Origin: a virus
Virus record (IMG/VR): IMGVR_UViG_3300017767_002783
Location: 1,249 to 65,248 of that record
Reading direction: 5' to 3' (one strand)
DNA: 64,000 nt
In this document: positions 1 to 37,954 of the stretch, piece after piece
Position numbering within the stretch: position 1 is the stretch's first letter
Layout: each line of letters opens with the position of its first letter
Position numbers and translations under genes: made by a program
Notes under the pieces: generated by a model
Databases searched by the model: none
What the model was told of the DNA's origin: nothing
What the model saw: the letters and a program-made list of their open reading frames with translations, nothing else

Positions 1-1227
1 ACGGATGATAATAAAGACACATCCAATATTTTTCAGTTATATTTACCGCCATATTTAATAGAAATGTTCGATAATTTTAAAATAGATTATAAGGCTGATT
101 CGGTTGATAACATTGAAAAAATGAATTTAAAACATAAATGGATTTATGTATTAGATGCACTTGGTGATCCTCGTGGTTGGTTAGGTAAATATTCTAAAGA
201 TGAAAATTCAATAAAGTCTGTATTTAGTGGTGTTAGTAAAAAGGCATTAAAACAGGTTCGAGACAATAAGGCCGTAATTATGATTTATCAGCCTATGGAA
301 GGTTACCCTACCAATTGGTTGGGTAATGATGTTTATGAAATAATTTATAAAGAAATTAAAAAATATAAATTAAATCCCAAAAATATTTTATATGTGACTG
401 GTAATTGGAAATTAAAAGAAGATTTCAAAAAGTGGAAACCCAAATCAAAATATTCTAAATCAGAAAATATTGTTGTATATAGTTTTAATAATGAAAGATA
501 TTTAGATTTTAGGAATAAATGGGAAGTTGCGGATTTAAATTCTAATAAAAAAAGAAGGGCATATTTTTTATGTTATAATAGGACACCACGAGGTCATAGA
601 ATGTATTTACTTTGTCTATTGCATGGTGCTGGTTTGATTCAAAAAGGATTTGTTTCATGTTCAGAAGTGCCTACGGATAAAAACTCACAAACTATTTTTA
701 GTGGGTTTCTACATAATTTAGGTGTTGGTGTCAATTTACGAAAAAATGCAATTCAACTAAGACAAGAATTTGCTAAAGGTTCACCCTACATAGTGGATGT
801 TGATGAATGGGGAACAAATCATTTTGATACATCACCACCTTGGCCATATGAAGAATCATTTTTTTCTGTAACCACTAATACTTTGTTTGAAGATGACGCA
901 TTATTTTTAGATGAAAAAATTTGGAAACCTATATTGAATTACCATCCTTTTATTTTTGTAGGATGTTATAATAGTTTAGAAAAACTCAAAGAGTTAGGGT
1001 TTAAAACATTTCATCCTTTTATAGACGAAAGTTATGATAAAGAAAAAAATCCTGTAAAGAGAATGTTAATGATTGTTAAAGAAATAGAAAGGTTGTGTAG
1101 TTATACGATGGAAGAAATGGAAAATTGGTATGAACAATTACTTCCAAGATTAAAATACAATCATCATCATTTATTTGATAGAAAAAACTTTAGTGAGTTT
1201 TTAAAAGTGATAAAACATGAAGTATAG
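1..1227 (+). CDS. DESYD-family glycosyltransferase-like protein, copy 1 (probably 5'-truncated by the window edge)
   Basis: C-terminal block SFFSVTTNT...DEKIWKP..YHPFIFVG...GFKTFHPFIDESYD. The frame is open from base 1 to the ATG at 64, so the true start may lie upstream of the window. Confidence 0.7.
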   Translation, partial: TDDNKDTSNIFQLYLPPYLIEMFDNFKIDYKADSVDNIEKMNLKHKWIYVLDALGDPRGWLGKYSKDENSIKSVFSGVSKKALKQVRDNKAVIMIYQPMEGYPTNWLGNDVYEIIYKEIKKYKLNPKNILYVTGNWKLKEDFKKWKPKSKYSKSENIVVYSFNNERYLDFRNKWEVADLNSNKKRRAYFLCYNRTPRGHRMYLLCLLHGAGLIQKGFVSCSEVPTDKNSQTIFSGFLHNLGVGVNLRKNAIQLRQEFAKGSPYIVDVDEWGTNHFDTSPPWPYEESFFSVTTNTLFEDDALFLDEKIWKPILNYHPFIFVGCYNSLEKLKELGFKTFHPFIDESYDKEKNPVKRMLMIVKEIERLCSYTMEEMENWYEQLLPRLKYNHHHLFDRKNFSEFLKVIKHEV

Positions 1228-2386
1228 TTTTATTTTTGATGATGATAATACATCTATGGGATTTCTTGAAAATGTAAGATTTGCAGGAATTGATATCAAT
1301 AGAAAATCAATTGACAATATAAAAGATGATTTAAATTATTATGTAATGTGGAGTGGTAGTGGGAATAGCATCGATAAGTCAAAGGTTGAGTTAATCAATC
1401 AAGGTAAAATGAAATTACTTTTGATTTCGGATGGTGAGGCGTTACAAGAAATGACATTAAATTGGGCCGTAGATGTTATTAAAGATTTTAAAATAGATTC
1501 AAAACAAGTTATTTTTATGTCTTATGATTTAAGAAGTGATGAAACATATAAGTTATTATTAAAAGAATTTTCTAAATTTAGAAAATATCCATTAAGTGTT
1601 ATTGGGATGGATACATATTGTTTTGAATCTCATTCAAATTTTGGTGATTTACCGCTACCAAATAAAGATAAAAAACCATACAAATATGTTTGTTATAATG
1701 CAAACGCAAAAGAATATAGAATGTTTATGGTTACTGAACTATTTAGACGAGGACTTGATAAACAAGGATTGATTTCTCTACTATTTAGATATGGTTCACC
1801 ACAACAGATGAGTAGTGATTTTGTAAGTGAATTAGGATTTAATACAAATAAAGAATTTGGTAAATTGGTTGATAGTTACGCTAAAACAGAAATGACTAAA
1901 CGAGTACCTTTAATTCTTGACCAAACTGTAAAACAAGTTGATAAAAATGATAGACCTGTTTCAGTTAATCATATAGAAAATTCATATTTTAATATAATAA
2001 CAGAAAGTTATATGTACAACAAATCATTACCACAATCTCATAAAACGATTTTTGAAATGAGTGAAAAAACATATAAGGCACTTATATGTCAACCATTTAT
2101 CCATTTGGGTAGTTATGGAGTTTTAGAGTATATGAAATCAATGGGATATAAAACTTTTCCTGAATTATTTGATGAAAGTTATGATGGTATAATAAATCAT
2201 ACAGATAGATTGTTAGCAGTTGTGAATTCGGTAGAAAAGGCCTGTAAAATTGATGATAGTGAATTTCATCATATTTATTGTAATGAAATTATACCAAAAG
2301 TTATTCACAATAGAAAATTGGCTAAATCTAAAAAAATTAAAGAAAAAATATGGAATAAGTTTATATCGGAGTTAGTAAAGTTATGA
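1217..2386 (+). CDS. DESYD-family glycosyltransferase-like protein, copy 2
   Basis: SYFNIITES...SEKTYK...PFIHLG...GYKTFPELFDESYD. Confidence 0.7.
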   Translation: MKYSFIFDDDNTSMGFLENVRFAGIDINRKSIDNIKDDLNYYVMWSGSGNSIDKSKVELINQGKMKLLLISDGEALQEMTLNWAVDVIKDFKIDSKQVIFMSYDLRSDETYKLLLKEFSKFRKYPLSVIGMDTYCFESHSNFGDLPLPNKDKKPYKYVCYNANAKEYRMFMVTELFRRGLDKQGLISLLFRYGSPQQMSSDFVSELGFNTNKEFGKLVDSYAKTEMTKRVPLILDQTVKQVDKNDRPVSVNHIENSYFNIITESYMYNKSLPQSHKTIFEMSEKTYKALICQPFIHLGSYGVLEYMKSMGYKTFPELFDESYDGIINHTDRLLAVVNSVEKACKIDDSEFHHIYCNEIIPKVIHNRKLAKSKKIKEKIWNKFISELVKL

Positions 2387-2904
2387 ATGATGATTGTACT
2401 GGATATTTAAAACCATTTTGGGATGATGAATACAAACATTTGAAGTATAAAAAAATGCCATTTAATAGTAAATATGATGTATCCAAATGGAGAGAAAAGG
2501 GTTATACACAAGATGAAAAATACTTTACAGGAGAAATGTGTAATTACAACGAAAAACAACCAAGTTGGAATGAAACATTTATTTCTTGGGCTAGATATCA
2601 ACACGGATTACATGATATTGGGTGTTGTTATTATCGTATGGTAACAAATGAAATATTACCAGTACACGGAGATGATTACAAACTTTATAGAGAAAAATTT
2701 AAAGTAGAACTTGTTGATTGTTATAGAATTTTAGTATTTTTAGAAGATTGGAAAAGTGGTCATTATTTTGAATTTAATAATAGGCCAGTAGTTGATTGGA
2801 AAAGTGGTGATTATTTTATATGGAATGATAAAGTTCCACATATGGCAGCAAATATTGGTATAGATGATAGATATACCTTACAAATAACAGGACATAAAAA
2901 ATGA
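2383..2904 (+). CDS. 2OG-Fe(II) oxygenase / cupin-like hydroxylase
   Basis: HxD (PVHGDD), distal His (PHMAANIG), RYTLQITG; double-stranded beta-helix pattern. Confidence 0.6.
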   Translation: MNDDCTGYLKPFWDDEYKHLKYKKMPFNSKYDVSKWREKGYTQDEKYFTGEMCNYNEKQPSWNETFISWARYQHGLHDIGCCYYRMVTNEILPVHGDDYKLYREKFKVELVDCYRILVFLEDWKSGHYFEFNNRPVVDWKSGDYFIWNDKVPHMAANIGIDDRYTLQITGHKK

Positions 2905-3635
2905 AAGTTTATAATCTTACAACCGAAAAATGTGCATCTAGATCTGTCGGTGGTGCCATAGAGGTTATATTGGGTGATAAGTATTTAAAAACTTATCCTG
3001 AAAAACATTCAAAAATATTTCCTAAATTTATACAATCTTATTATCATCTTACAACAGACGATTGGAATAATTTTGATAAATTATGTGATGATAATTATGT
3101 TTTTCAATTTGTGAGAAATCCGTTTGATAGATTTGTTTCTTCTTTTATAATGGCATATGGTGGAGATGAGGGACATAATTTTATAGCTGACGATATACCA
3201 AAACTTAGAAATCCAATATCAAAAGAAAATCAATTACTCTGTTTTAAAGATTTTTGTAAAAGAGTATCTGATAGTTTTAATGGTGGAAATTTTAATATGA
3301 ATTCACACGTCATGTTACAAACTGATTGTTTAAGTTTTACTGCTAGAACTCCGAAACATAATATTATGGAGTTTGATATATGTGATTATATTGAAAGAAA
3401 AAAATATAATATTTTTAAAGTAGAAAATTATGATGAAAGTCTTGAAACACTCACATCTGATTTTGAAAAAAATAATTTTGTTACTTTTAAATTTCTTAAA
3501 AATATTGGTAAAATAGGAGATAGGTCATCGAAGAAATTCAGTACTGATTATAGAGATTGGTATAATGATGAAACATATAATTTAATGAGTCCTCATTTTA
3601 AAAAAGAAATGGAGTTATTTAATTATGAATTTTAA
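2901..3635 (+). CDS. Sulfotransferase family protein (Sulfotransfer_2-like)
   Basis: PAPS-binding motifs EKCASRS (5'PSB) and FVRNPFDRFVSS (3'PB). Confidence 0.75.
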   Translation: MKVYNLTTEKCASRSVGGAIEVILGDKYLKTYPEKHSKIFPKFIQSYYHLTTDDWNNFDKLCDDNYVFQFVRNPFDRFVSSFIMAYGGDEGHNFIADDIPKLRNPISKENQLLCFKDFCKRVSDSFNGGNFNMNSHVMLQTDCLSFTARTPKHNIMEFDICDYIERKKYNIFKVENYDESLETLTSDFEKNNFVTFKFLKNIGKIGDRSSKKFSTDYRDWYNDETYNLMSPHFKKEMELFNYEF

Positions 3636-4923
3636 CAAAATATATTTACAAAATTTGTTTATAGAAAATCCACCACACACTTCTGCAGAATTACTTTTTG
3701 AATGGGATAGGCCTCCAGATAATTCTTTTCAAATGAGCCTATATTCTGAAATAGAAACTGCAAAAGAAACTAATAAGTATATATTATTAATTAATGTTAA
3801 CTTTGATCCTTGGTATCAATTTACAGAAAATAAAGATGTACGAGATGGAGTTTTAAAATCACTAAAAGAATTTTCAAATAAAGATGAAAGATTTAAAAAA
3901 TATGTCAAGGATGTGAAAAATAAAAAAGCCTTAATATGTTTTATATGTTATGAGCCGAGTAATTTTTACTTCGAACCATATACTGAATTATTTTTAAATT
4001 TTTGTAATTACTTAAAAGTAAATCAGAAAAGTACATTTTTTATGGTGCCAGAAGATTATCATGTAGATATAGAAACTAATGGGTTTGATGTAATATTTTA
4101 TCCAGGTCATACACCAAGAGGATTAGAAAATTATGAAGAATTAGATGAGTATGTAAACTTTTACAGGTTTTACAATAAACATACAAGAGATATGTACAGA
4201 GATAAACATTTTATTTCTACAAATAATGGTGGAAGAATAGGACGAACAAACATTTATAAAATCGTAGACGATAATAATTTATACGAAAAGGGGTATTTTT
4301 CATATCTACATACAGGAGATGATACCCTTGAAGGTTTAAAACAAAATTTAAATTGGTTTGGGCCAATTCAATGGTCACCACAATATTGGGATTATAAAGA
4401 AGAAAATAATTTAAAGTATGAAGAATTTGATGATGATTATGTACAGAAATTATATGACAAATTACCTATTGTATTAGATATAGAAAGAATAGCTTCAGGT
4501 GAAAAATATTATTTACAACCAGGTTTTTTAAATTCTTATTTTAATATAAATTGTGAGAGTTTTGAACAAAATGATGAGTGGAGTTATTGTAGTGAAAAAT
4601 CATTTAAACCATTAATTTCTTGTCAACCATTTATATTAGTGGCAGGACAAAATCATTTAAAAACTTATAAAAAGTGGGGATATAAAACTTTTCATCCTTA
4701 TATTGATGAGAGTTATGATGATGAACCAGATTACCATATACGGATGAAAATGATTGAAAATGAAATTTTAAGATTGTGTTCTTTTACTAAAAAAGAAATA
4801 CATGAATGGTATTGGAATATGAATGATATACTATTACACAATTTAAATAATTTTAAAAAAACTATAACTACCGATTCACAAAAACGATATAAGAAAATTG
4901 AGGACAAGTGGAAAAATATATAA
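3625..4923 (+). CDS. DESYD-family glycosyltransferase-like protein, copy 3
   Basis: SYFNINCES...SEKSFKP...QPFILVAG...GYKTFHPYIDESYD. Confidence 0.7.
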   Translation: MNFNKIYLQNLFIENPPHTSAELLFEWDRPPDNSFQMSLYSEIETAKETNKYILLINVNFDPWYQFTENKDVRDGVLKSLKEFSNKDERFKKYVKDVKNKKALICFICYEPSNFYFEPYTELFLNFCNYLKVNQKSTFFMVPEDYHVDIETNGFDVIFYPGHTPRGLENYEELDEYVNFYRFYNKHTRDMYRDKHFISTNNGGRIGRTNIYKIVDDNNLYEKGYFSYLHTGDDTLEGLKQNLNWFGPIQWSPQYWDYKEENNLKYEEFDDDYVQKLYDKLPIVLDIERIASGEKYYLQPGFLNSYFNINCESFEQNDEWSYCSEKSFKPLISCQPFILVAGQNHLKTYKKWGYKTFHPYIDESYDDEPDYHIRMKMIENEILRLCSFTKKEIHEWYWNMNDILLHNLNNFKKTITTDSQKRYKKIEDKWKNI

Positions 4924-5687
4924 TAACAAGTGGATGTAGTTATTCTGATGTTTCAATGGGAGCGTGGCCTAAACACATTGATGAATTTTTTCCTAATGTA
5001 ATTGTCAAGAATTATGGTTCTTGTGCAAGAGGAAATGACTACATTAGTCGAACAATAATATCATCAGTGCAAAAGTTGTTAGATGATGGTGTAAAACCAA
5101 ATAATATTTTTGTTTTGGGGTGTTGGTCTGGATTACAAAGACGAGATATATTAATAAATAAAGAAAGTGTTAAACAGCATTTTTCTTTATCTCATCATAC
5201 AAAAAAACAAAATGAGTTGGGATTTACAAATAAATTACCAATAGGTGAGTGGGAAGGATTTAACGAGGAATGGTGGAAACTTATATCAGAAGAACAAGGT
5301 ATAATAATTTCACTTGAGAATATTTTGAGAACAGAGTGGTTTTTAAGAGATAAAAAAATAAATTATAAATTTTTCAGTTTTGTTAATATTTTTGTAGATT
5401 CACATTACTTTGAGGAATGGAATCCAAAATATAATACAGAATCTAATACAAAAATTATTGAAAAATATCCAAATACTAAATATCTTTGGGATATGATAGA
5501 TTGGGATAAATGGTGGTTTTGGAAAAATTATGGTGGAGTCGGTAATTGGATATTAGAAAATGTTAAGGGTGGATATGATAAAGATGAGATTGGTGGAATG
5601 TTAGGACATAACCATCCAACTGAAAAAGGTCATAAAGAGTTTGCAGAAAAAATAGTATCTATTTTTATAAATGATACTTATAATTAA
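4908..5687 (+). CDS. SGNH/GDSL-like hydrolase or acyltransferase, copy 1
   Basis: N-terminal TSGCSYS, ARGNDYISR block, C-terminal NHP; GTG start. Confidence 0.6.
   Translation: MEKYIITSGCSYSDVSMGAWPKHIDEFFPNVIVKNYGSCARGNDYISRTIISSVQKLLDDGVKPNNIFVLGCWSGLQRRDILINKESVKQHFSLSHHTKKQNELGFTNKLPIGEWEGFNEEWWKLISEEQGIIISLENILRTEWFLRDKKINYKFFSFVNIFVDSHYFEEWNPKYNTESNTKIIEKYPNTKYLWDMIDWDKWWFWKNYGGVGNWILENVKGGYDKDEIGGMLGHNHPTEKGHKEFAEKIVSIFINDTYN
5674..5682 (+). promoter_or_regulatory. ATACTTATA candidate promoter motif
   Basis: Variant of the ATATTTATA motif seen repeatedly upstream of genes; 18 nt before an SD-led ATG. Confidence 0.35.
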
Positions 5688-5806: not shown

Positions 5807-6469
5807 ATGGAAATTATAGGTTTTGGTGATAGTTGGGTTGCTGGACACGGAGTAGAAGCTGACGAGAAGTATTCTGATGTTCCTAATGAAAAAGTACCTG
5901 ATGAGATATTAAAAATTCGTTTAAATGGTTCTTTAATTTCACAACTGGCAAATAAAGTAGATTGTACATGGAAAAACTATGGGTTATGTGGTGCAAGTAA
6001 TAGTGAGATTTATAATTCTTTTTTAGAATGGTATAATAGTGTAAAAGTTAATAGTAGATATGTAGTTATTGTTGGATTTACAGTTACAAGTCGTGATGTT
6101 ATACCATCTAAAACTGAAAAAGAACGAGGAATTAATCGAGAATTAATAGATGAATCTGATCAGATTAGACATTTACTACTTATTTATGATAAAATTTTAA
6201 AGTTATGTAAAGATAAAAATATTAATTGTATTTTTTTCAACGCGTGGGATTCAAGTTTGGATGATAAGTATGAAAACTTTTGGAAACCATCAGATACTAT
6301 GGCTAATTTTTTATTAAATAAAGAGAAGAATGTGTGGCAATATGATTGGGGAAAAAATAATTATTATAAACTTGTTGGTACACGAGGTGGTTGGCATCCA
6401 AATATTAAAGGTTATAAATACATTACAGAAGAATTATATAATTTTGGAGTGAAATTAAAAATATGGTAA
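5807..6469 (+). CDS. SGNH/GDSL-like protein, copy 2
   Basis: GFGDSWVAG, GASNSEIY, GGWHPN. Confidence 0.65.
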   Translation: MEIIGFGDSWVAGHGVEADEKYSDVPNEKVPDEILKIRLNGSLISQLANKVDCTWKNYGLCGASNSEIYNSFLEWYNSVKVNSRYVVIVGFTVTSRDVIPSKTEKERGINRELIDESDQIRHLLLIYDKILKLCKDKNINCIFFNAWDSSLDDKYENFWKPSDTMANFLLNKEKNVWQYDWGKNNYYKLVGTRGGWHPNIKGYKYITEELYNFGVKLKIW

Positions 6470-7338
6470 ATAGGTTATTAACAATGGGATGTAGTTTTAG
6501 TTGTAATTCTTATCCTGAAATTTTACAAAACATAATGGGTGATATAGAAGTTCATAATTGGTCACGACATTCTTGTGGAAACGAACACATAATGAGGTCG
6601 GTTATATTTGGTTGTCAACAACATTATCAACAATATAAAACTTATGATAATTTATATGTTATTGTACAATGGTCAGGATTGCATAGGGTAGAAAAATTAG
6701 TTACTAAAAAAGAAACCATAGAGTTTGATGATTATTTAGAAAATGCCGAAGTTACACCAATAGTAAATTGGGATGATGATTGGGAGAGTGGTAAAAAAAG
6801 AGAATCGGGTTGGTTGTTTGGAACGGGCTGGTTTCATTTACCAATTTGGAAAAAGTGGTTTCAAACCATAGAAACTGATGAACTTGCCTTTATTAGAACT
6901 ATGGAATGTATTTTAACACTACAACACTTTTTTAAATCAAATAATATAAATTATAAAATGATAAAGATGGAAAATATTTTTAATGATTATTCGGTTGATT
7001 ATTTAAAGGGGGCCACGATATCAGAACCCGATTCACAAGATTCTGGTGTGTTATGGAATCATTTGAGCACTTTAGATACCATTAAAAATGTTTCAAAGAA
7101 TACACCATTACTTAAAGATAAGTTTCCAAACGCCACTCATTTGTGGGATATGATTGATTGGTCTAAATGGTTTTTATATAAAAATGATTTGGTTGAGAAT
7201 GGTGGAATTTCAGAGTGGACTTTATTTGAGGGAAGTCGGCCTTGGTCTACCGAAGATGATGTACAACATCCAAGTATGGAAAATAGAGAATTATTTACAA
7301 GAAAAGTTTTATTAGAGGATATTGAGAAATGGAAATAA
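6463..7338 (+). CDS. SGNH/GDSL-like protein, copy 3
   Basis: TMGCSFS, SCGNEHIMR, VQWSG, DVQHPS (DxxH). Confidence 0.6.
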   Translation: MVNRLLTMGCSFSCNSYPEILQNIMGDIEVHNWSRHSCGNEHIMRSVIFGCQQHYQQYKTYDNLYVIVQWSGLHRVEKLVTKKETIEFDDYLENAEVTPIVNWDDDWESGKKRESGWLFGTGWFHLPIWKKWFQTIETDELAFIRTMECILTLQHFFKSNNINYKMIKMENIFNDYSVDYLKGATISEPDSQDSGVLWNHLSTLDTIKNVSKNTPLLKDKFPNATHLWDMIDWSKWFLYKNDLVENGGISEWTLFEGSRPWSTEDDVQHPSMENRELFTRKVLLEDIEKWK

Positions 7339-10878: not shown

Positions 10879-11552
10879 TGAAAAGTATTGATATAATAAA
10901 AGAACTTGAAAAGTGGATAGTTGATAAAGGAAGTGGTGGATATACTGAAGGAGTAGATTCATATACTGAATATTATTCTGGTACAAATCCAATAGAAGGT
11001 ATTCAGCAAACTAAACAAGAAATAAAAGAGTTTGTAGAATATTTAAATGATAAATTTAATGGTGGTATTATTTTGGAAGTTGGATTGGGATATTTTGGTA
11101 GTACTCATTTTATATGGAGAATGATTTTTGATAAAGTTATCACAATTGAAAATCAAAATGATAGAATTAAAGAATTTGGTTTGAACACTCAAAAATATTA
11201 TAATAAGTGGATTTTAAATGATGGAAAAAGTTTCTTTATACATGGAGATTCGAATAGTCCAGGCACCGTAGGTGATTTATACAACTTAACTCAAAACGAA
11301 GAAATAGATATTGTGTTTATAGATGCTTTACATACTTATGAAGCAGTATTAACTGATTGGTTGGTTTATAGTCCACGAGTCAAGAGAGGTGGAATTGTGG
11401 CATTCCATGATTGTGAGAAAAGATTTCCACATCGTAAAGGAGTTGCGGATTTTATAGATGAATTAGAAAATGGAAACATAGATGGTAAAAAATATAAAAT
11501 GAATAAGATTGTACATTCAGCTGAACAAGGAATTTGTTGGTATATAAAATGA
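10878..11552 (+). CDS. Class I SAM-dependent methyltransferase (Methyltransf_24-like)
   Basis: LEVGLGYFGST motif I, FIDALHTYE, GGIVAFHD. Confidence 0.8.
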   Translation: MKSIDIIKELEKWIVDKGSGGYTEGVDSYTEYYSGTNPIEGIQQTKQEIKEFVEYLNDKFNGGIILEVGLGYFGSTHFIWRMIFDKVITIENQNDRIKEFGLNTQKYYNKWILNDGKSFFIHGDSNSPGTVGDLYNLTQNEEIDIVFIDALHTYEAVLTDWLVYSPRVKRGGIVAFHDCEKRFPHRKGVADFIDELENGNIDGKKYKMNKIVHSAEQGICWYIK

Positions 11553-17105: not shown

Positions 17106-17120
17106 TTTTTAATTTTGTTT

Positions 17121-17129: not shown

Positions 17130-17136
17130 TATAAGA

Positions 17137-19382: not shown

Positions 19383-19383
19383 T

Positions 19384-30379: not shown

Positions 30380-31832
30380 ACAATTTATACCTAAAGATTG
30401 TAGTTTAGAACCTTGTGTAAATTGGGAAATACATTACAAAACTAATAATCCATTTTTCGAAAATCCTATAACGAAATATGAAGATTTAAGTGATGAATAT
30501 ACAAATTTATTTTTTGTTAATATTCCGCCTTGGAATTTTGTAACTAAATCTATTGATTTTGATTGGTCTAATTACGAAAGAGTAAAAGATTTAGTAAACC
30601 AAAATAAATTAATATTGATATTAGATAGAAGAACTGAGCAAGTTTTACTTACGGTTCGTATTTACCTATTTGATTTATTTGAGAAAAGGGGATTTAACAC
30701 GGATAATATTTATATTTTTGATGGTAATATTAATTTCAAAATAAAAGATAAAGGAAATTGTTCGTTACCACTTGAAAATAATTTAACAATTGATTGGGCA
30801 CCATATAGATATTCAGAATGTTATTTGAAAATGTTTGATGATGTAGTTCCATACGATGAAAATCAAACTAATTATTTAACAAAGTATAGAAAGCCATTTA
30901 AGTATGTGACATTCAATGGTACATTACATCCATACCGAGCTGGATTAATTGCATATTTACTTCAACATAAACTTGATGAATATGGTTTAATATCTTGTGG
31001 TTCTTGTAAAGACCAACCAGACGAACTTGAAGATTTTATATATGAGTTTTTTGGTGTATTAAATTTAACAATATCTCAAGAAGAAGTCAAGGATTTTTTA
31101 TCAAAACTTCCTTTGTTATTAGACAAAGGTGCAACACATTCAAAACACGCTGATATCGATGAGGCACAATTATCACATATAACACATAAAGATTTTATTT
31201 TACCAAAAAATATAAAAAGAGTTTGGGAAAAATATGATTTGAGTGATGAGAAAATAGTTGATGAGATAGATAACATAGATGAAAAACGAATTGTTCAACA
31301 ATGGTTTGCTGGAAAAGATGCTGAATATCGACACGATAGAACAATTCAAAAATTTGGTTATGCACCATATGGTGGTTCAATAGTAGAAAATACTCCAGGA
31401 TATATAAATTATAAAAACTCTTATTTTTCAATTGTTACTGAAAGTCCACCGATAGATTTTATTGAACACGATCCTTATCTTGACGATAATATACATAGTA
31501 CTATTCATAAAAGTACAGACAAAACAATACAATCTTTGATGTTTCATCCGTGTATTTTTTATACAGCACCTTATCATTTAAAATATCTTAGGGGGCTGGG
31601 GTTTAAAACTTTTCCTGAATTGTTTGACGAGAGTTATGATGAAATAGAAGATTATGTAGAAAGGATTAAATTTGTAACATTAGAAGTACATAGAGTAATT
31701 AATATGTCATTTGATGAGTTACATGATATTTATATACAGTTATTACCAACAATTAAACACAATCAATCAGTTATGGAAAAAATTGACAAAGAACAGATAG
31801 TTTTAAATTCGTTACAGGAAATTAAAGTATGA
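30363..31832 (+). CDS. DESYD-family glycosyltransferase-like protein, copy 7
   Basis: SYFSIVTES...TDKTIQ..FHPCIFY...GFKTFPELFDESYD. Confidence 0.7.
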   Translation: MKYPYRQFIPKDCSLEPCVNWEIHYKTNNPFFENPITKYEDLSDEYTNLFFVNIPPWNFVTKSIDFDWSNYERVKDLVNQNKLILILDRRTEQVLLTVRIYLFDLFEKRGFNTDNIYIFDGNINFKIKDKGNCSLPLENNLTIDWAPYRYSECYLKMFDDVVPYDENQTNYLTKYRKPFKYVTFNGTLHPYRAGLIAYLLQHKLDEYGLISCGSCKDQPDELEDFIYEFFGVLNLTISQEEVKDFLSKLPLLLDKGATHSKHADIDEAQLSHITHKDFILPKNIKRVWEKYDLSDEKIVDEIDNIDEKRIVQQWFAGKDAEYRHDRTIQKFGYAPYGGSIVENTPGYINYKNSYFSIVTESPPIDFIEHDPYLDDNIHSTIHKSTDKTIQSLMFHPCIFYTAPYHLKYLRGLGFKTFPELFDESYDEIEDYVERIKFVTLEVHRVINMSFDELHDIYIQLLPTIKHNQSVMEKIDKEQIVLNSLQEIKV

Positions 31833-32950
31833 TTTTACATAAACCTTGGCCAGACGGATGGAACTATGGTGGAGTCGAAGTAATTAATAATTATTTTGAA
31901 AGACATTATGATAAGAAATTTGTAATCATACAATTTCCTTGGCCGTGTTATGACCAAGAGGAATATTGGAAATGTAGTTTTAAAGATAATTCTAATCATT
32001 CATCTTGGGTTAGTGCAAAACAGGCCTTATTAGAAGTTGAATTTGATTATCTTGTAATATATGAACCTGTGGAGTGGATGTTTCATAAAGATACCATTAA
32101 AGATTATTACAATTTTTTTAAGTGGTGTAACATACCAATGGAAAAAATAATATATCAAGGGCCAAATCATGGAATGTATAAATACTATGACCACATCAAT
32201 CTTGATAAGAAAATGAGATTTAATAGTGTTTCCTTTAACCATTGTTTAATATCATCTTTGGATACTCATAAGAATACACTTAACGATTATACAGAAGAAG
32301 TAAAATTTGACGGAAGTAAATTATTTATCTGTCCTATGAGTAGTAAAGGAGATCATCGTGAATTATTATATTATAAATTAAAAGAAAATAATTTGTTAAA
32401 GGATGGTCATGTTTCTGCAAGATGGAAAGAAGTTTATCTTGATGATTTGGGATTGGGCCCACACCGTGGTATCCATCAACAAGAAACATCACATTTAAGT
32501 TCAGTTCATTCCATACTTCCTTATTATAAAGATGCATTTTGTAGTGTAGTTACAGAATCAGAATATCATAAATTTAATATAAGATTTACAGAAAAATTTT
32601 ATTTTCCAATAATGTACAATCAACCATTTATGGTTTTGGGTTCACCAAGTCTATTAAAGTGGATTAAAAAATATGGATTTGAAACTTTTCCTGAATTGTT
32701 TGATGAGAGTTATGATGAAGAAAATGATTTGAAAAAACGGACAGAAATTATTATAGATAATTTAAAAAAACTACAAGACAAGTCAAATCAAGAATTACAA
32801 GATTTATTAGAAATGGTTAAACCTAAGATTATTCACAATAAAAAAATATTAAAAAAATACGCAAATTGTAATATAAATCAACATTCCTATACTGAATTAC
32901 TCAATGTTATGAAGTTGGCAATGGATGAACAAATTAGGAATGTGTTATGA
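31829..32950 (+). CDS. DESYD-family glycosyltransferase-like protein, copy 8
   Basis: AFCSVVTES...TEKFYFP..NQPFMVLG...GFETFPELFDESYD. Confidence 0.7.
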   Translation: MILHKPWPDGWNYGGVEVINNYFERHYDKKFVIIQFPWPCYDQEEYWKCSFKDNSNHSSWVSAKQALLEVEFDYLVIYEPVEWMFHKDTIKDYYNFFKWCNIPMEKIIYQGPNHGMYKYYDHINLDKKMRFNSVSFNHCLISSLDTHKNTLNDYTEEVKFDGSKLFICPMSSKGDHRELLYYKLKENNLLKDGHVSARWKEVYLDDLGLGPHRGIHQQETSHLSSVHSILPYYKDAFCSVVTESEYHKFNIRFTEKFYFPIMYNQPFMVLGSPSLLKWIKKYGFETFPELFDESYDEENDLKKRTEIIIDNLKKLQDKSNQELQDLLEMVKPKIIHNKKILKKYANCNINQHSYTELLNVMKLAMDEQIRNVL

Positions 32951-33756
32951 AATATTTATATACAAATGGTTGTAGCTTTGTTTGGGGAGATGAATTACAA
33001 AATCCAAATGATAGTAATTGGCAATTTACCCATCGATGGAGTAAAGTACTTTCAGATAAAATGGGAGTTGAAGAAATAAACCATTCACAAAATGGAAGTT
33101 CTAATAATAGAATTTATAGGACAACAAAAGATTGGATTTTTAATAATAAAGATAAGTTGAAAGATACTTTTATAGTTTTAGGTTGGTCACAATCGGTAAG
33201 AACAGAAAGGTATAATGATATTGCTAATATGTATGAATCAATAAATTTTGCTGTTCAACCAGAATATATGTCTGCTTCCAATAATAATGGAATGGATGCT
33301 AGTGGAGATCCCGCAGGTAATAAAGACCACGGCCCATTTTTAGGTATGTCACCATCACAAAACTTTTGGGAACAATATGTAAAGTATTATTTTGATGATA
33401 ATTATTTTAACGAAGAAACTGCCCTACGAGTATTTGCAATGCAACAATTATTAGAAAAATATAATATAAAATACTACTTTTATTTTTCTATGGAGAATAA
33501 TGTATTACATCACATACAAGGTAATTATGAAAATTTGTATAACCTTGATAAAATTTACCATCAATGTCAAGAAGATTGGATAATGGATGAGGTGAAAAAG
33601 AAAACAGGTGGTATTCTTGAGTGGGATAATAAAGTAAATACATTTAAAAATACTAAGGGTGGATGGAGTGGATTTAATGGTTCACATCCTGATGAAAAAT
33701 CACATTCATTATGGGCAGATTTTTTATATAAAGAATTTAGAAGGTTATACAAATGA
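32947..33756 (+). CDS. SGNH/GDSL-like protein, copy 8
   Basis: TNGCSFVWG, GSSNNRIYR, LGWS, GSHPD. Confidence 0.65.
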   Translation: MKYLYTNGCSFVWGDELQNPNDSNWQFTHRWSKVLSDKMGVEEINHSQNGSSNNRIYRTTKDWIFNNKDKLKDTFIVLGWSQSVRTERYNDIANMYESINFAVQPEYMSASNNNGMDASGDPAGNKDHGPFLGMSPSQNFWEQYVKYYFDDNYFNEETALRVFAMQQLLEKYNIKYYFYFSMENNVLHHIQGNYENLYNLDKIYHQCQEDWIMDEVKKKTGGILEWDNKVNTFKNTKGGWSGFNGSHPDEKSHSLWADFLYKEFRRLYK

Positions 33757-36677
33757 CGGATGTACTATTTATAAATCCTGCGAGTTCAAAAGAGGTATAT
33801 CAAAATCTTTCAAATGAATATTCTGCCATAGGAACACCATATTGGGCCTTATTATTAGCAGAATCTTGTCGTTCTAAAAAACACAAAGTAAAGATAATTG
33901 ATGTATTGGCAGAAAAACTTGATGATGATACATTCATTAAACGTGTTTTTGATATAAATCCAAAATTAATAGTCTTTTGTGTATATGGAGAAAATGTAAA
34001 TGGTGGAACTGCACAAATGGAAGGTGCACTTCGATTGTCTAAGTTATTAAAAGCAAAAGAATGGATACATCCGAGAGCTCCGATATCCTTTTTGGGTTCT
34101 CATGTACAGGCATTGCCTACTAAAGTTTTGAGAGAAGAATTGAGTGTTGATATTGTTTTTACAAACGAAGGTGTTTATTCTTTGTGGGAAATTTTAAAAC
34201 TAGATCGTGAAGAAATTTGGATTACGGATTATTTACAAAAAGTAAAAGGTATTGGTTATAGGATAGATGAATCACATAAAAAAACACAAATATTAACAGA
34301 ACCACAACAAGTTGTACCACAAGAAAGAATGGATATAGATTTACCTGGATATGCTTGGGATTTATTACCATATAAAGAAAAACCTTTTGATTTGTATCGT
34401 TCACCAATGTGGCATGCAGAATACGATGAGAAAAAAAGAACACCTTATGCTTCTATATACACATCGTTAGGTTGTGTATTTCAATGTGAATTTTGTATGA
34501 TTAATATGATTAATAGGGATGATAATGAAGAAATAGGTGTTGCCGGTAACTATAATAAAATGAGGTTTTGGTCAACTGAGTTTATATTAAAACAATTTGA
34601 TAAGTTGGTAGGGATGGGAGTAAAAACTATTAGAATTATTGATGAGATGTTTTTACTTAATCCAAAATATTATGTACCTTTATGTGAGGGATTGATAGAA
34701 AGAGGATATGGTTCTGAATTAATAATGTGGGCATATTCAAGAGTAGATACTATTAAAAAACCAAAAGTTTTAAAATTATTAAGAGATGCAGGAATAAGAT
34801 GGTTGGCACTTGGTATTGAAAGTTCACAGAAAAGTATAAGGTTAGAAGTTTCTAAAGGTAAATTTGAAGATGTAGACATTAAGGATGTGGTTAAAAAAGT
34901 AGAAGATGCCAATATTCATGTTATGGCAAATTATATCTTTGGTTTACCAACCGATACCTTAGATACTATGAAAGAAACCTTAGAGTTTAGTAAAGAATTA
35001 AATACCGTTGGGTGGAATGCCTACCCTGCAATATCATTGCCTGGTACTCAATGGTACAAAGATAGTTCAGATTACTTTTTAAATAAAAAATATAGTTCGT
35101 ATTCGTTTCACTCATACGATACAAAACCAACAACTTCAAAACAATTATCATCTGATGAAATATTAAAATTTAGAGATTCTGCGTGGAAAGAGTATCATAC
35201 TGATGAATTATTTTTAGATAAAATAGAGAATAAACTCGGTAAGGTTGCACGAAATAATATTGAAGAAATGAGTAAAGTTACTCTTGATAGAAAAGATAAC
35301 AAAGTACCAACTCGATTTGATGTTATAGAAATTATATGTGAAACTGGTGGATTTTGGAATAGTACAGACGACAGATTTCCATCACCAATTTTTAATCATT
35401 ATGAATATGGTGGAGCATATCCTAAAATCAATGATTATATAGGTGATGATTCTGCTGCTATAAAAGATGCAAGTTATAATAATGAGGGGGAACATTATGA
35501 TTCACCCATGATAACCAATCAAACTAATTTTAATGATTCTCAGTTTGATCAGAAAACACATAGTTATAAAAATTCAAATATAAAATATCCTTTGATATTA
35601 AATCATCATGGTGAAATATTAGAGAGGTGGATGGTAAATAAAATATTAAACGATTTAGAAAAAGTTGGGGTTGAATCAGGCAAAGTAAAAATTTTAGATA
35701 GTAATACTGCAAAAAATCTTCATCCTAATGTTGTTGGGGTAGATTCGGAATTTTATCAAATTGAATTTCTTGTTAGAAAAAAATATTTATTTGGTAACAA
35801 GATACCTTATACAGATGAGTATTTTAAATTTTTAGAAAATCATAGAAAACCAAAAACATATATTGCACTCTGTTCTACTTTGCACATACATAGAAAGTTT
35901 TCTTTAAATGAAATATTTAGAAGAAATATTTTAGATAAGGGGTATGTTTCAGCATACTTTGGAAATCAAGATGAAATTGATTATCATAATTCTTTGAAAA
36001 GTGCAGAAGAAATGAATAAAGCATATAATTCAACTGATACTGCAGTAGAAAATAATTGGTATCCAAATTCCTTTGAATATGAGGAATGGAAAAAACTTCC
36101 ATTAGTTTTAGATATGGTACAGCATATAAATCCAAGTGGAAAATTTACAGAAATGACCGATTCAACTGCCAGATTTGTAAATTTAGATGAATTTGATGAA
36201 ACAGAAATAAGGGCGTCTCTTGATAATAAATGGCCAATATTAGAGGATAAAAAGGCGATTCCACATAAGTATTTTGAGAATAGTTATTTTTCATTCGTAA
36301 TGGATTCAGTACTTGGTAGTGGTTTTGATAGTCCAAATGAATTTAAATTTATAACAGAAAAAGTTTATAGAACTATGCTATTACACCCTATGATTTTATT
36401 GGGATGTGCATATACATTAAAACATTTACGGAGTAGAGGATTTGAAACTTTTCCAGAAATGTTTGATGAAAGTTATGATGAAATTGAAAACGATAAGGAA
36501 AGATTTTTCTTTATAATGAACGAAGTAGAAAGAGTGTGTAATTTACCTAAAGAAGAATTACACGAAAAATATGTTTCTGTTTTACCTAAAATAAAACATA
36601 ATCAAGAAATTTTTTATAATTCAAAAGAACTTATTCATAAAGAGATGGATGAGTTAGAAAAGGAGTTAGTATCATGA
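33753..36677 (+). CDS. B12-binding radical SAM protein fused to a C-terminal DESYD-family domain (copy 9)
   Basis: N-terminal cobalamin-binding-like domain, CxxxCxxC (CVFQCEFC, 34473-34496), LGIES, NYIFGLP; C-terminus TEKVYR..LHPMILLG..GFETFPEMFDESYD. Confidence 0.8.
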   Translation: MTDVLFINPASSKEVYQNLSNEYSAIGTPYWALLLAESCRSKKHKVKIIDVLAEKLDDDTFIKRVFDINPKLIVFCVYGENVNGGTAQMEGALRLSKLLKAKEWIHPRAPISFLGSHVQALPTKVLREELSVDIVFTNEGVYSLWEILKLDREEIWITDYLQKVKGIGYRIDESHKKTQILTEPQQVVPQERMDIDLPGYAWDLLPYKEKPFDLYRSPMWHAEYDEKKRTPYASIYTSLGCVFQCEFCMINMINRDDNEEIGVAGNYNKMRFWSTEFILKQFDKLVGMGVKTIRIIDEMFLLNPKYYVPLCEGLIERGYGSELIMWAYSRVDTIKKPKVLKLLRDAGIRWLALGIESSQKSIRLEVSKGKFEDVDIKDVVKKVEDANIHVMANYIFGLPTDTLDTMKETLEFSKELNTVGWNAYPAISLPGTQWYKDSSDYFLNKKYSSYSFHSYDTKPTTSKQLSSDEILKFRDSAWKEYHTDELFLDKIENKLGKVARNNIEEMSKVTLDRKDNKVPTRFDVIEIICETGGFWNSTDDRFPSPIFNHYEYGGAYPKINDYIGDDSAAIKDASYNNEGEHYDSPMITNQTNFNDSQFDQKTHSYKNSNIKYPLILNHHGEILERWMVNKILNDLEKVGVESGKVKILDSNTAKNLHPNVVGVDSEFYQIEFLVRKKYLFGNKIPYTDEYFKFLENHRKPKTYIALCSTLHIHRKFSLNEIFRRNILDKGYVSAYFGNQDEIDYHNSLKSAEEMNKAYNSTDTAVENNWYPNSFEYEEWKKLPLVLDMVQHINPSGKFTEMTDSTARFVNLDEFDETEIRASLDNKWPILEDKKAIPHKYFENSYFSFVMDSVLGSGFDSPNEFKFITEKVYRTMLLHPMILLGCAYTLKHLRSRGFETFPEMFDESYDEIENDKERFFFIMNEVERVCNLPKEELHEKYVSVLPKIKHNQEIFYNSKELIHKEMDELEKELVS

Positions 36678-37954
36678 ATGTAGGATTTATAGGATTGGGT
36701 AAACTTGGTTTACCTTGTGCTTTGGCAGTAGAATCGAGAGGTCATAAAGTAGTAGGTTATGATCCTTCAGAACAAGTTAAAGAAATTGTCGATACAAAGA
36801 AACTTCAATATCAGGAAATATGGGCTCAAGACCATTTAGATAAAAGTAAGATAGAAATAAAATCGATAAGAGAAGTTGTACAGGAATCTGATATTATTTT
36901 CGTTCCGATTCAGACACCACACGGAGATGAATTTGAAGGAATTACACGGATACCAAAGCATAGAAAAGATTTTGATTACACTTATTTAAAACAAGGTATT
37001 AAAGATTTAGAAATAGAAATATGGGATGAACAGCGACCAAAAGTGGTTATTATTATTTCTACGGTTTTACCTGGTACAATCCGTAAAGAAATTAAACCAA
37101 TTATAGACCACAATCCATATTTTAAATTGTGTTACAATCCATTCTTTATTGCTATGGGAACAACAATGAGAGATTTTTTACATCCTGAATTTATTTTATT
37201 TGGTCAAGATGATGATTGGGCATTAAAAACTGCAAGAAAGTTTTACAAAACAATAACACATGCTCCTGTGTTTGAAACTACAATTGAAAATGCCGAATTG
37301 ATTAAGGTTTCTTACAATACTTTTATATCTACAAAATTATCTTTTGCAAATACCGTAATGGAAATGTGTCATAAACTACCTAATACCAATTGTGATGATG
37401 TGATGAATGCGTTATCACTTGGTACTAAAAGAATATTAGCCGAATCCTATTGGTCAGGTGGTATGGGAGATGGTGGTGGATGTCACCCAAGAGATAACAT
37501 AGCACTTAGTTGGTTATCACAAGAGTTAGATTTATCTCATGATTGGTTTGATAATATAATGAAACAACGAGAAAATCAAACTGATTGGTTAGCCGATTTG
37601 ATAGAAAAACATGCTGAAGATAGAGGAATAAATATACTCGGAAAATCTTTCAAACCTGAAACCAACATTGCAACAGGCAGTCCATCCATCTTATTACAGA
37701 ATATATTAGAAGAAAGAGGACATGGAGTATTTATATGGGATCCGTATGTTGATGAGCCTTGGGAAAAAATAAAGGAAATGTACGATGATAGTGAAACTGA
37801 GAATCATTCTCAATTATATTTTATCGGAACTAAACATCCTGAATTTACAAGTTTTCCGTTTGAAAAAGGTTCAGTAATAATTGATCCTTGGAGATACATT
37901 CCTACATCAGAGGACTATAAAGTTATTCACATCGGTATAGGCGAATCCATCTAA
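36674..37954 (+). CDS. ugd: UDP-glucose/GDP-mannose 6-dehydrogenase family
   Basis: GFIGLGKLG, FVPIQTP, STVLPGT, YNPFF, AELIKVSYN, GGGCHPRD, GKSFKPET. Confidence 0.88.
   Translation: MNVGFIGLGKLGLPCALAVESRGHKVVGYDPSEQVKEIVDTKKLQYQEIWAQDHLDKSKIEIKSIREVVQESDIIFVPIQTPHGDEFEGITRIPKHRKDFDYTYLKQGIKDLEIEIWDEQRPKVVIIISTVLPGTIRKEIKPIIDHNPYFKLCYNPFFIAMGTTMRDFLHPEFILFGQDDDWALKTARKFYKTITHAPVFETTIENAELIKVSYNTFISTKLSFANTVMEMCHKLPNTNCDDVMNALSLGTKRILAESYWSGGMGDGGGCHPRDNIALSWLSQELDLSHDWFDNIMKQRENQTDWLADLIEKHAEDRGINILGKSFKPETNIATGSPSILLQNILEERGHGVFIWDPYVDEPWEKIKEMYDDSETENHSQLYFIGTKHPEFTSFPFEKGSVIIDPWRYIPTSEDYKVIHIGIGESI

Follow-up and report, generated by a model that had tools for sequence, protein, structure and literature searches.

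The DNA analysed here (the window) is a stretch of 64,000 nucleotides, bases 1249-65248 of the 65.8 kb viral contig IMGVR_UViG_3300017767_002783, and its left part is filled by a large island of sugar-related genes that precedes the packaging and head genes of a phage. The window has a low G+C content (0.26-0.37) and nearly all of its genes lie on the plus strand. The genes for TerL (48119-49696), the portal protein (49709-51589) and a T4-type major head protein (62098-63714) are all found 3' of 38 kb. The major head protein is 52-56% identical to those of a 484 kb uncultured phage, Microcystis phage Mel-JY01 and the Flavobacterium 'immuto' phages, with that of Rhodothermus phage RM378 more distant. 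The closest cultured relatives by this protein infect Microcystis and Flavobacterium, at an identity of only 52-53%. When both halves of the window were compared by megablast with 50,697 deposited phage records, no match at the DNA level was obtained. Because of these head-protein identities and the lack of a deposited phage matching in DNA, the source is an uncultured marine myovirus that is distantly related to T4. Matches in metagenome-assembled genomes (MAGs) of Flavobacteriales and Pelagibacterales are short contigs, possibly misbinned virus.

Positions 1-37954 are filled by 37 plus-strand open reading frames (ORFs) of 163-974 aa, whose stops and starts mostly overlap; the only gaps of more than 25 nt are 5688-5806 and 17106-17251. 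A previous reading of this DNA from its letters only (the sequence-only reading) had described an unbroken, co-oriented run of 38 genes, of which the co-orientation and the tight packing hold and the count does not. Its description of the genes as mostly carbohydrate-related is borne out, as 34 of the 37 have a sugar-related assignment (the exceptions are g03, g15 and g17). Fifteen are nucleotide-sugar or tailoring enzymes named by Pfam/NCBIfam (g04, g11, g12, g19-g21, g23, g24, g26-g31 and g37). Sorting of paralogues by all-against-all BLAST and hidden Markov models (HMMs) gave two families, family A and DUF6071, to which g03, g15, g16, g17, g18 and g27 were unrelated in the HMM search. The 'about 19' transfer or acyl paralogues of the sequence-only reading were recovered as nine family A proteins, eight SGNH-like proteins and two fucosyltransferase-like proteins.

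The island was also said to span 1-37954, but it continues for ~11 kb to the left of the window start (L101:6356-17307, and longer contigs), so that the whole island measures ~49 kb and ~48 genes, 38 kb of it inside the window. The upstream extension encodes three paralogous fusions of GT7 (Glyco_transf_7N/7C) with Laminin_G_3 lectin-like domains, an 828 aa radical-SAM (S-adenosylmethionine) protein, a second Methyltransf_24 protein and several unknowns. Peptidase_S74 is a self-cleaving chaperone typical of tail fibres, and a protein with this domain is encoded further left. The island therefore sits between a fibre-chaperone gene and the packaging and head genes, on one strand throughout. It is indeed upstream of a T4-like head module with TerL, portal and head protein, but not directly so, as TerL is separated from the island by ~10 kb with other genes, among them those for a kinase, a ferredoxin and a CCA-adding enzyme. 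Five records were searched, namely the window record and four relatives (G000, G001, G002, G004 and G005); G002 is the closest relative and G005 is complete. The features of the island within the window are as follows.

1..1227 (+): g01, putative family A GT-B glycosyltransferase; 5' end open, full protein 433 aa (P0001); G002 orthologue with 46% identity
1217..2386 (+): g02, putative family A glycosyltransferase (BLAST/HMM family)
2383..2904 (+): g03, 173 aa, without Pfam/NCBIfam match; kept in G002 with 56% identity
2901..3635 (+): g04, sulfotransferase-like (Sulfotransfer_2; 36.8 bits, cut-off 22); absent from G002
3625..4923 (+): g05, putative family A glycosyltransferase (BLAST/HMM family)
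4908..5687 (+): g06, DUF6071, predicted SGNH fold (Pfam and family HMM)
5807..6469 (+): g07, GDSL-motif protein, distant SGNH relative; N-terminal FGDSWVAG; weak A3 HMM match, E 9e-4
6463..7338 (+): g08, DUF6071, predicted SGNH fold (family HMM)
7329..8291 (+): g09, DUF6071, predicted SGNH fold, modelled member (AF2, predicted local distance difference test [pLDDT] 89; SGNH/GDSL structure matches)
8288..9394 (+): g10, DUF6071, predicted SGNH fold (family HMM)
9391..10878 (+): g11, NodU/CmcH-type O-carbamoyltransferase (193 and 136 bits)
10878..11552 (+): g12, SAM methyltransferase, Methyltransf_24/CmcI-like (Pfam/NCBIfam)
11534..12946 (+): g13, putative family A glycosyltransferase (BLAST/HMM family)
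12925..13758 (+): g14, DUF6071, predicted SGNH fold (family HMM)
13761..14483 (+): g15, 240 aa, without Pfam/NCBIfam match; absent from G002
14480..15496 (+): g16, candidate fucosyltransferase-superfamily glycosyltransferase, GT11/GT23/NodZ-like (Atlas structure, lead only)
15481..16026 (+): g17, 181 aa, without Pfam/NCBIfam match; kept in G002 with 51% identity
16023..17105 (+): g18, candidate fucosyltransferase-superfamily glycosyltransferase (Atlas structure, lead only)
17106..17251 (+): intergenic leader with promoter-like motif TATACTTATA at 17120-17129, 123 nt before the g19 start
17252..18283 (+): g19, nucleoside-diphosphate (NDP)-hexose 4,6-dehydratase (Pfam/NCBIfam); G002 orthologue with 86% identity
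18265..18756 (+): g20, RmlC-like cupin, 3,5-epimerase or ketoisomerase (Pfam/NCBIfam)
18702..19382 (+): g21, short E1-alpha-like thiamine diphosphate (ThDP) subunit (Pfam/NCBIfam); homologues at 44 of 79 viral family A loci
19333..20127 (+): g22, DUF6071, predicted SGNH fold (68 bits)
20124..20654 (+): g23, short E1-beta-like (transketolase pyrimidine-binding) subunit (Pfam/NCBIfam); homologues at 34 of 79 loci
20620..21555 (+): g24, short-chain dehydrogenase/reductase (SDR); best NCBIfam match GDP-L-fucose synthase
21548..22612 (+): g25, putative family A glycosyltransferase, modelled member (AF2 pLDDT 86.5; GT-B fold matches)
22602..23255 (+): g26, 2-oxoglutarate (2OG)-Fe(II) oxygenase (Pfam/NCBIfam)
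23200..24111 (+): g27, 2OG-Fe(II) oxygenase of 'sporadic carbohydrate cluster' type (TIGR04324, 56 bits, below its cut-off)
24126..25052 (+): g28, PanB, 3-methyl-2-oxobutanoate hydroxymethyltransferase (315 and 271 bits, above both cut-offs); absent from G002
25052..26908 (+): g29, YerE-like ThDP carboligase of the acetolactate-synthase (ALS) family; best PDB match JanthE 8rph
26908..28092 (+): g30, ColD-type pyridoxamine phosphate (PMP)-dependent NDP-4-keto-6-deoxyhexose 3-dehydratase (ColD 179 bits; His-His)
28093..29043 (+): g31, SDR, GDP-fucose-synthase-like, candidate ColC/YerF-type reductase (Pfam/NCBIfam)
28961..30379 (+): g32, putative family A glycosyltransferase (BLAST/HMM family); G002 orthologue
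30363..31832 (+): g33, putative family A glycosyltransferase (BLAST/HMM family); G002 orthologue
31829..32950 (+): g34, putative family A glycosyltransferase (BLAST/HMM family)
32947..33756 (+): g35, DUF6071, predicted SGNH fold (family HMM)
33753..36677 (+): g36, fusion of a B12-binding radical-SAM part (residues ~25-480) and a putative family A glycosyltransferase domain (~584-972) (Pfam/NCBIfam, HMM)
36674..37954 (+): g37, UDP-glucose/GDP-mannose dehydrogenase family, last island gene (Pfam); 91% identical G002 gene at the opposite island end
37979..37988 (+): promoter-like motif TATATTTATT, opening the next gene block (island right border); conserved in G002

An assembly chimera, with a polysaccharide locus of bacterial origin fused at ~38 kb to the head module of a phage, would be suggested by a rise of the AT skew from ~0.08 to ~0.2 at the right border and by a 116.5 kb ENA contig that ends ~0.5 kb before the junction, inside g37. 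However, GC content and GC skew are continuous across 38 kb, and five independent assemblies run from the island across 37954 into the following genes with unchanged gene order. In viral-fraction metagenomes, one run from each of two studies yielded a single contig (7.8 kb and 4.9 kb) that spans 37954-38015 with one mismatch, and the depth in these runs is flat across the junction (~25-30 on both sides). The sequence-only reading had named a coverage break at this point as evidence for a chimera; no such break was found. The layout of island followed by terminase is also present in relatives, and the end of the ENA contig is likely due to branching of the assembly graph on a 91% identical copy of g37 that lies elsewhere in G002. 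The jump in AT skew, on the other hand, may reflect a differing protein composition or a separate history of the island. Exact g25 and g37 proteins occur on many independent contigs (ENA, JGI, TARA and Logan) in the same gene order, and a 9.7 kb piece of the island was found nearly verbatim in no fewer than 14 DNA runs, which come from at least 9 marine studies, viral-fraction metagenomes included. The island and the head module belong to one real phage genome, and we regard the probability of a chimera as negligible.

Two expanded protein families and the predicted sugar chemistry

Family A comprises nine proteins in the window (g01, g02, g05, g13, g25, g32, g33, g34 and the C-terminus of g36), as found with BLAST and HMMs. 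Their C-terminal halves are conserved (SYFxxxTE...TEKxxKP...HPF...G...GF(K/E)TFPxxFDESYD) and their N-terminal halves are highly variable. A profile search returned more than 700 metagenome homologues, none of which has a name or a Pfam domain. When the nine paralogues were scanned against Pfam, no match was found at E<=0.01, Glyco_transf_10 (PF00852) included, and the family profile retrieved no GT10 chain from the PDB sequences at E<=10. A link to beta-hemolysin was dropped, as the marginal PDB profile matches covered the low-complexity N-region only.

The AlphaFold model of g25 (70 sequences) had a pLDDT of 86.5. In Foldseek the top match was the Helicobacter pylori alpha-1,3-fucosyltransferase 2nzw, followed by other GT-B enzymes, all of them weak (E ~0.01). 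In an exhaustive structural search (VIA-align), Z scores of 10.5 for T4 beta-glucosyltransferase (BGT), 9.5 for FUT11 and 9.3 for FUT13 were obtained, followed by chlorovirus A075L (8.9), the H. pylori fucosyltransferase HpFucT and T4 alpha-glucosyltransferase (8.8 each) and FUT9 (8.7). In the AlphaFold DB, family A's own unnamed clusters came first, and then GT10 and other fucosyltransferases. Across 70 sequences R133 and K247 are invariant and E246, in the 'TEK' block, is at least 90% conserved. This acidic-lysine pair and the invariant arginine may correspond to the donor-binding residues of GT10. Judging from the model, we read family A as a new family of GT-B enzymes, similar in fold to GT10 but outside it by sequence. 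The GT-B fold is common to family A and the GT10 fucosyltransferases (2nzw/5zoi, FUT9 and FUT11/13), which are its best Foldseek matches, whereas the GF(K/E)TFPxxFDESYD signature is found in family A only and its N-domains are much more variable.

Family A is present at no fewer than 565 places (>=565) in IMG/VR. A tblastn search with g32 and g25 against the 50,697 phage records gave no match, so that no cultured relative with family A was found. In 79 fetched viral family A loci the 10 kb vicinity mostly contains DUF6071, and homologues of g19, g20, g21, g23, g24 or g31 occur at 30-48 of the 79. The strict family A motif was found at only 34 loci in 185,579 species-representative genomes. Chromosomal family A genes occur in one or two copies next to genes for GT9 heptosyltransferase, GT2, UDP-glucose dehydrogenase (UGDH), DegT, MBOAT and asparagine-synthase-like proteins. 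The cellular homologues (L106, L107 and L111, chromosomal contigs of bacterial MAGs) are mostly from Alphaproteobacteria and Bdellovibrionota.

The second family, DUF6071, has seven members (g06, g08, g09, g10, g14, g22 and g35), and g07, with its canonical FGDSxxxG start, is an eighth SGNH-like protein. G25, S27, N74 and H243-P244 are invariant across the seven paralogues and correspond to SGNH blocks I, III and V; the Gly and the Ser are invariant in 37 sequences. The alignment of the seven shows no conserved Asp at His-3 in block V, and a Ser-His dyad suffices in some SGNH enzymes. The model of g09 (pLDDT 89) gave VIA-align Z scores of 8.8-12.2, and its best 50 rows were all SGNH/GDSL esterases, carbohydrate esterases or peptidoglycan O-acetyltransferases. 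The Foldseek rows were mostly from the same SGNH/GDSL families. In the ESM Atlas, g22 has only viral clusters as its nearest neighbours, a minority of them with Lipase_GDSL. By this model DUF6071 is an SGNH-fold family, acyl-esterase/transferase-like, for which the sequence leaves undecided whether acyl groups are added or removed. No mention of DUF6071 was found in the literature searched.

Two further proteins are leads to glycosyltransferases of the fucosyltransferase superfamily (GT11/GT23/NodZ/O-FucT). The g16 protein resembles ESM Atlas clusters of which 84-100% are labelled FUT8_N_cat or Glyco_transf_11 (template modelling [TM] score 0.56-0.66), while g18 is the weaker candidate (TM score 0.46-0.48 and feature score 0.92-0.96 to NodZ/O-FucT-labelled clusters). 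Together with the three upstream fusions, the 11 glycosyltransferases in the window give 14 candidates.

The genes g28-g31 are contiguous and translationally coupled. ColD is a PMP-dependent GDP-4-keto-6-deoxymannose 3-dehydratase, and g30 is nearest to it (179 bits, compared to 143 bits for the CDP-hexose E1 dehydrase). As in ColD, a His-His pair is found in g30 at the position of the Schiff-base lysine of aminotransferases. From the ColD match and the His-His pair, g30 is therefore a 3-deoxygenase; an assignment as a DegT-family aminotransferase was ruled out, since the Schiff-base lysine is replaced. The product of PanB is a hydroxymethylated alpha-keto acid, and because g28 lies directly upstream of g29, this product is proposed as the branch donor. 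Among solved structures g29 matches JanthE best (8rph, 282 bits); the score against true acetolactate synthases is 227 bits, and g29 falls below the ALS equivalog cut-offs of NCBIfam. JanthE is YerE-like and couples ketones with alpha-keto acids of differing length (PMC12188165). YerE-type enzymes put acyl branches on NDP-4-keto-3,6-dideoxyhexoses, and for longer branches functionalised keto acids are supplied by neighbouring genes (PMC9306805). We propose from the gene content that the PanB keto acid and g29 could give rise to a new, long-branched 3,6-dideoxyhexose. As in the YerE/ErwE/JanthE pathways (yersiniose, erwiniose and caryophyllose), an ALS-family carboligase lies beside a 3-dehydratase, a reductase and a keto-acid gene. 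Unlike in those pathways, the 3-dehydratase is ColD-like and not E1/E3, the keto-acid gene is PanB and not an aldolase, no CDP-glucose synthase is present, and the setting is a phage instead of an O-antigen or antibiotic cluster.

A second cassette (g19, g20, the split E1-like pair g21/g23, and g24) is more widespread than g28-g31 and looks like a two-carbon branching route. The fucosyltransferase-like proteins, the ColD-like g30 and the Fcl-like reductases point to sugars that would be GDP-linked 6-deoxy-sugars. Because no nucleotidyltransferase (NTP_transferase) was found in the five records, host NDP-hexoses must feed the pathway. The decorations listed in the sequence-only reading thus have their counterparts here at the level of protein families: deoxygenation in g19 and g30, branching in the g21/g23 pair and g29, carbamoylation in g11, sulfation in g04, methylation in g12 and the B12-binding radical-SAM part of g36, and acylation in the eight SGNH-fold proteins, be it by transfer or by hydrolysis.

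Promoter-like motif and turnover among relatives

Six exact plus-strand copies of the motif TATAYTTATW are present in the window (17120, 37979, 51612, 59566, 60559 and 63780). All six are intergenic, compared to 2.4% of the window, and they lie 22-129 nt before a start codon. Four copies are in the region from the portal to the major head protein; of the other two, the first precedes g19 by 123 nt and the second opens the block that follows the island. In G002 three plus-strand copies were found, all three intergenic and at corresponding places, one of them again 123 nt ahead of the sugar operon. The motif is a candidate late-type promoter, and its distribution suggests that the sugar operon may be switched on together with the head genes. 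As the motif is common to the head region, such timing would fit a decoration of the particle and not DNA modification or surface remodelling, both of which are expected early.

The 146-nt leader that contains the first copy (17106-17251) is conserved in G002 (L094:6362-6527; 78% column identity), where a different gene nevertheless comes first downstream. The blocks GATAACA.GGG, GACTATAAACA and GGTGTC are kept, and there may be one stem with compensatory changes. Rfam at gathering thresholds gave no match in the whole window; the leader at 17.1 kb therefore has no match among known riboswitches.

The four related records carry 8-12 family A genes each. These form one block of ~40 kb in three records; the complete record, the 216 kb genome of G005, has them in two regions. 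In the four records that include TerL, family A lies upstream of the terminase, and TerL is 70-90% identical to that of the window phage. The 38-55 kb backbone is collinear in G002, with proteins that are 75-96% identical. Inside the G002 island UGDH (91%), the dehydratase (86%) and the carbamoyltransferase (93% over two thirds of its length) are still similar. The gene order differs, however, and G002 lacks counterparts of g04 (sulfotransferase), g15, g16, g28 (PanB) and g29 (YerE-like). The family A transferases are only 25-46% identical between the two phages, and in the tree only three orthologous glycosyltransferase pairs were found (g01, g32 and g33 among family A), the other branches being very long. 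These comparisons show that the position of the island is conserved and its content is reshuffled among related phages, with a turnover faster than that of the backbone. An exposed structure that diversifies would be expected to turn over in this way while the backbone stays stable. The synteny comparison that the sequence-only reading had proposed thus places the island upstream of the terminase in the relatives as well. Its view that the size is unusual stands (11 glycosyltransferases and three upstream, compared to a published 13), whereas the paralogue expansion is not peculiar to this phage, as the relatives have 8-12 copies.

Possible acceptors of the predicted glycan

None of the 37 proteins in the window qualified as a membrane protein: the highest Kyte-Doolittle 19-residue mean was 1.51, below the cut-off of 1.6. 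The priming transferases Bac_transf and Glycos_transf_4, the flippase Polysacc_synt and the exporter ABC2_membrane were absent from the five records, and the positive controls worked; Wzy and ligase were not searched separately. The sequence-only reading, which saw no export machinery or membrane protein and proposed a cytoplasmic system, is supported by these results, all 37 proteins being predicted to be soluble. Known DNA-glycan pathways start from a ThyA-like hydroxymethylase, or from a C5-methyltransferase together with 5mYOX (preprint 10.1101/2023.12.21.572611). The ThyA-family hydroxymethylase (PF00303) was absent from the complete relative G005 and C5-cytosine methyltransferase (PF00145) from the five records. 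The search for Tet_JBP (PF12851) gave no match, but its control was equally silent. The oxygenases of the island match the prolyl-hydroxylase-like and 'carbohydrate cluster' types, not TET/JBP.

Taken together, the island could be a self-contained assembly line for glycans in the host cytoplasm that works without a lipid carrier. Host NDP-hexoses would be the feedstock, and g19 would convert them to an NDP-4-keto-6-deoxyhexose. In one branch g20, g21/g23 and g24 would add a two-carbon C-branch, a cassette that travels with family A in many phages. In the other branch g30 would remove the 3-OH, g29 would add an acyl branch from an alpha-keto acid, possibly the PanB product (ketopantoate or an analogue), and g31 would reduce the sugar. 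A uronic acid would come from g37. The 11 soluble glycosyltransferases of the window (nine of family A and two fucosyltransferase-like) and the three GT7-lectin fusions would then add the sugars singly; in family A the conserved C-domain would form the donor side, and the N-domains are variable. Finally, the chain would be decorated by the eight SGNH-fold enzymes, the carbamoyl-, sulfo- and methyltransferase, the two 2OG oxygenases and the B12-radical-SAM enzyme. The analysis itself shows which genes are present, their folds and catalytic motifs, the lack of export genes, the conservation and turnover of the island and the integrity of the DNA; in the scheme we infer the identities of the sugars, the nucleotide carrier, the timing and, most of all, the acceptor.

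We favour the virion as the acceptor, and rate at about even the chances that the island serves a late, cytoplasmic glycosylation of the phage's own virion proteins (head decoration, capsid or fibres) with a complex, strain-variable oligosaccharide. The virion is favoured because neither a lipid-carrier start nor export genes were found in the five records, because the sugar operon and the head-region genes have a motif in common, and because the island turns over fast on a stable backbone. As in a mycobacteriophage-type system, soluble glycosyltransferases lie within the virion structural region, co-oriented with the head genes and with a common promoter-like motif. Virion glycosylation also fits the presence of the DNA in viral-fraction metagenomes. 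Several points weigh against this reading. No exact copy of TATAYTTATW is present in the island's first half, and the common motif is the sole basis for calling the expression late. In contigs from RNA libraries (X15 and X16) island and head genes have similar depth, in which strand, timing and DNA carry-over are unresolvable. Both the virion glycan and its acceptor protein are predictions from genes. Soluble GT-B enzymes also work at the membrane face, where they assemble lipopolysaccharide (LPS) and O-antigen on lipid carriers, the chromosomal setting of family A is, by its gene neighbours, that of envelope polysaccharide, and the single best fold match of family A is a DNA glucosyltransferase (T4 BGT), tied with fucosyltransferases.

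Some of these points lead to the host envelope. The phage enzymes could extend an undecaprenyl-linked or LPS-core acceptor of the host, whose priming enzyme, flippase and ligase would then export the product, and the surface of the infected cell would be changed, for example to block superinfection or grazing. Comparable clusters in P-SSM2 (PMC1079782) and S-SCSM2R (PMC12801897) have been read in this way, cellular family A homologues lie in LPS/polysaccharide loci, and peripheral O-antigen glycosyltransferases are also predicted to be soluble. We nevertheless consider this rather improbable. In the ~49 kb island and in the complete relative no priming transferase, flippase or ABC exporter was found (with the same limit for Wzy and ligase), the head-region motif precedes the sugar operon and a surface change just before lysis would be of little use, and the window contains no lysogeny gene.

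The fold matches of family A to T4 BGT (Z 10.5) and alpha-glucosyltransferase (Z 8.8) and the two 2OG-Fe(II) oxygenases of the island could also indicate that an oligosaccharide is placed on a modified base of the phage genome, as a protection against restriction and CRISPR, T4 with its glucosyl-hmC being the model case. Oligosaccharide-like adducts are known from YerA41 (~1 kDa on thymidine; PMC9023294) and from 5-hydroxymethylcytosine (5hmC) glycans in metaviromes (10.1101/2023.12.21.572611), and because YerA41 shows that large DNA glycans are possible, we keep this reading, as an unlikely one. The ThyA-family hydroxymethylase and the C5-cytosine methyltransferase are lacking within the scopes given above, Tet_JBP gave no match although its control was silent, the oxygenases are of other types, and the BGT score is tied with those of fucosyltransferases. 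Moreover, the head-region motif points to late expression, and 11-14 glycosyltransferases with sulfation, carbamoylation and acyl handling far exceed the DNA glycans that we found described. Slightly less likely again is a product of the infected cell that is bound to neither virion, DNA nor envelope polymer. It could be a glycoconjugate, free or anchored to lipid, or a small molecule carrying sugars, for example for signalling, storage or anti-defence. YerE-type sugars, carbamoyl groups and B12-radical-SAM methylation belong to the usual repertoire of glycosylated natural products (PMC9306805), and NCBIfam matches to natural-product radical-SAM methylases were obtained. On the other hand, the island has no aglycone-forming genes (polyketide synthase, nonribosomal peptide synthetase or terpene), ~14 glycosyltransferases imply a long chain, and the hypervariability and the place among structural genes better fit an exposed structure.

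Comparison with known glycosylation systems

Phage particles are usually regarded as bare protein. As far as we found, virion glycans are documented only for mycobacteriophages, whose glycosylation operons reportedly have only a few genes. Glycans are reported on the capsid and tail tube of these phages (Freeman 2023, via PMC12619734). Che8, Corndog and Myrna are described as having, like the island, soluble glycosyltransferases and methyltransferases inside the structural region without export genes; these enzymes are proposed or shown to act on capsid and tail proteins in the cytoplasm (PMC12619734, PMC12801897). Compared to these phages, the island has ~48 genes, 11-14 glycosyltransferases, its own synthesis of branched deoxy-sugars, sulfation, carbamoylation and SGNH proteins, and its glycan is a predicted one.

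Among marine T4-like phages, the cyanomyoviruses P-SSM2 and S-SCSM2R resemble the island in having many epimerase, dehydratase and glycosyltransferase genes, including GT10/GT11. P-SSM2 has 24 LPS-type genes in two clusters, for which a role at the host surface was proposed (PMC1079782), and S-SCSM2R has 22 genes with 13 glycosyltransferases, which may, according to its authors, be a record for marine phages (PMC12801897). In contrast to these clusters, the island forms one block of about twice the size and has acyl-branched-sugar chemistry. It is dominated by two expanded families that cyanomyoviruses are not reported to have, and the tblastn search with two family A paralogues, which covered these phages among the 50,697 records, found none. 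Phage DNA glycosylation (T4 alpha- and beta-glucosyltransferase, the 5hmC clusters of Pyle et al. and YerA41) also relies on soluble GT-B enzymes. It differs from the island in scale, in tailoring chemistry and in the head-region motif, and its ThyA-like or C5-methyltransferase neighbours were not found in the records searched.

A likeness also exists to eukaryotic viruses. The chlorovirus glycosyltransferase A075L is among the best fold matches of family A (Z 8.9), a likeness in fold with none shown in sequence. Chlorovirus PBCV-1 and Mimivirus have a cytoplasmic, virus-encoded glycosylation that is independent of the endoplasmic reticulum and of lipid carriers, with many glycosyltransferases, rare sugars and methylation. 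The glycan gene clusters of giant viruses differ between lineages, and their glycosyltransferases are of other families.

Large sugar-gene sets in marine T4-like phages and virion glycosylation in mycobacteriophages were thus already known. New here are the single block of ~49 kb with 14 candidate glycosyltransferases, the two expanded, virus-dominated and uncharacterised families, the acyl-branched-sugar logic with PanB, the conserved position combined with a rapid turnover of content, and the promoter link to head-region genes. A more specific proposal, which we put forward tentatively and which is more doubtful than probable, is that a marine, jumbo-class T4-like clade coats its virions with a cytoplasm-built, O-antigen-like and strain-variable oligosaccharide by means of family A and a virus-specific SGNH family, and that this glycan includes a PanB-derived, acyl-branched 3,6-dideoxy-sugar. 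If true, this would be the largest dedicated glycosylation system of any phage and a bacterial-virus counterpart of the glycan machinery of giant viruses. Of the phage genome, roughly a quarter to a third is given over to glycan synthesis. A glycan on the particle would bear on the adsorption of marine phages, on their evasion of grazers and enzymes, on their sticking to particles and on their diversification. Handles for further work are the unnamed glycosyltransferase family (at least 565 viral loci and no member in a cultured phage), the fold and motif of DUF6071, and the route from PanB to a YerE-like sugar.

Four minor observations concern the contigs and the right border. The 116.5 kb ENA contig (L100) splits two island genes that are intact elsewhere (L101/L097), one of 282 aa into 87+178 and one of 389 aa into 277+84; the splits stem either from errors in assembly or from natural frameshifts. 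Part of the gene for the CCA-adding enzyme (40020-41221) is covered at two to three times the depth in two viral-fraction runs, probably by cross-mapping of related phages. For the ORF at 38015-38809, gene callers place the start further downstream. Just 3' of the island, at 38811-39113, a 4Fe-4S ferredoxin of 100 aa is encoded, which is without a counterpart at the matching place in G002 and could feed a radical-SAM enzyme.

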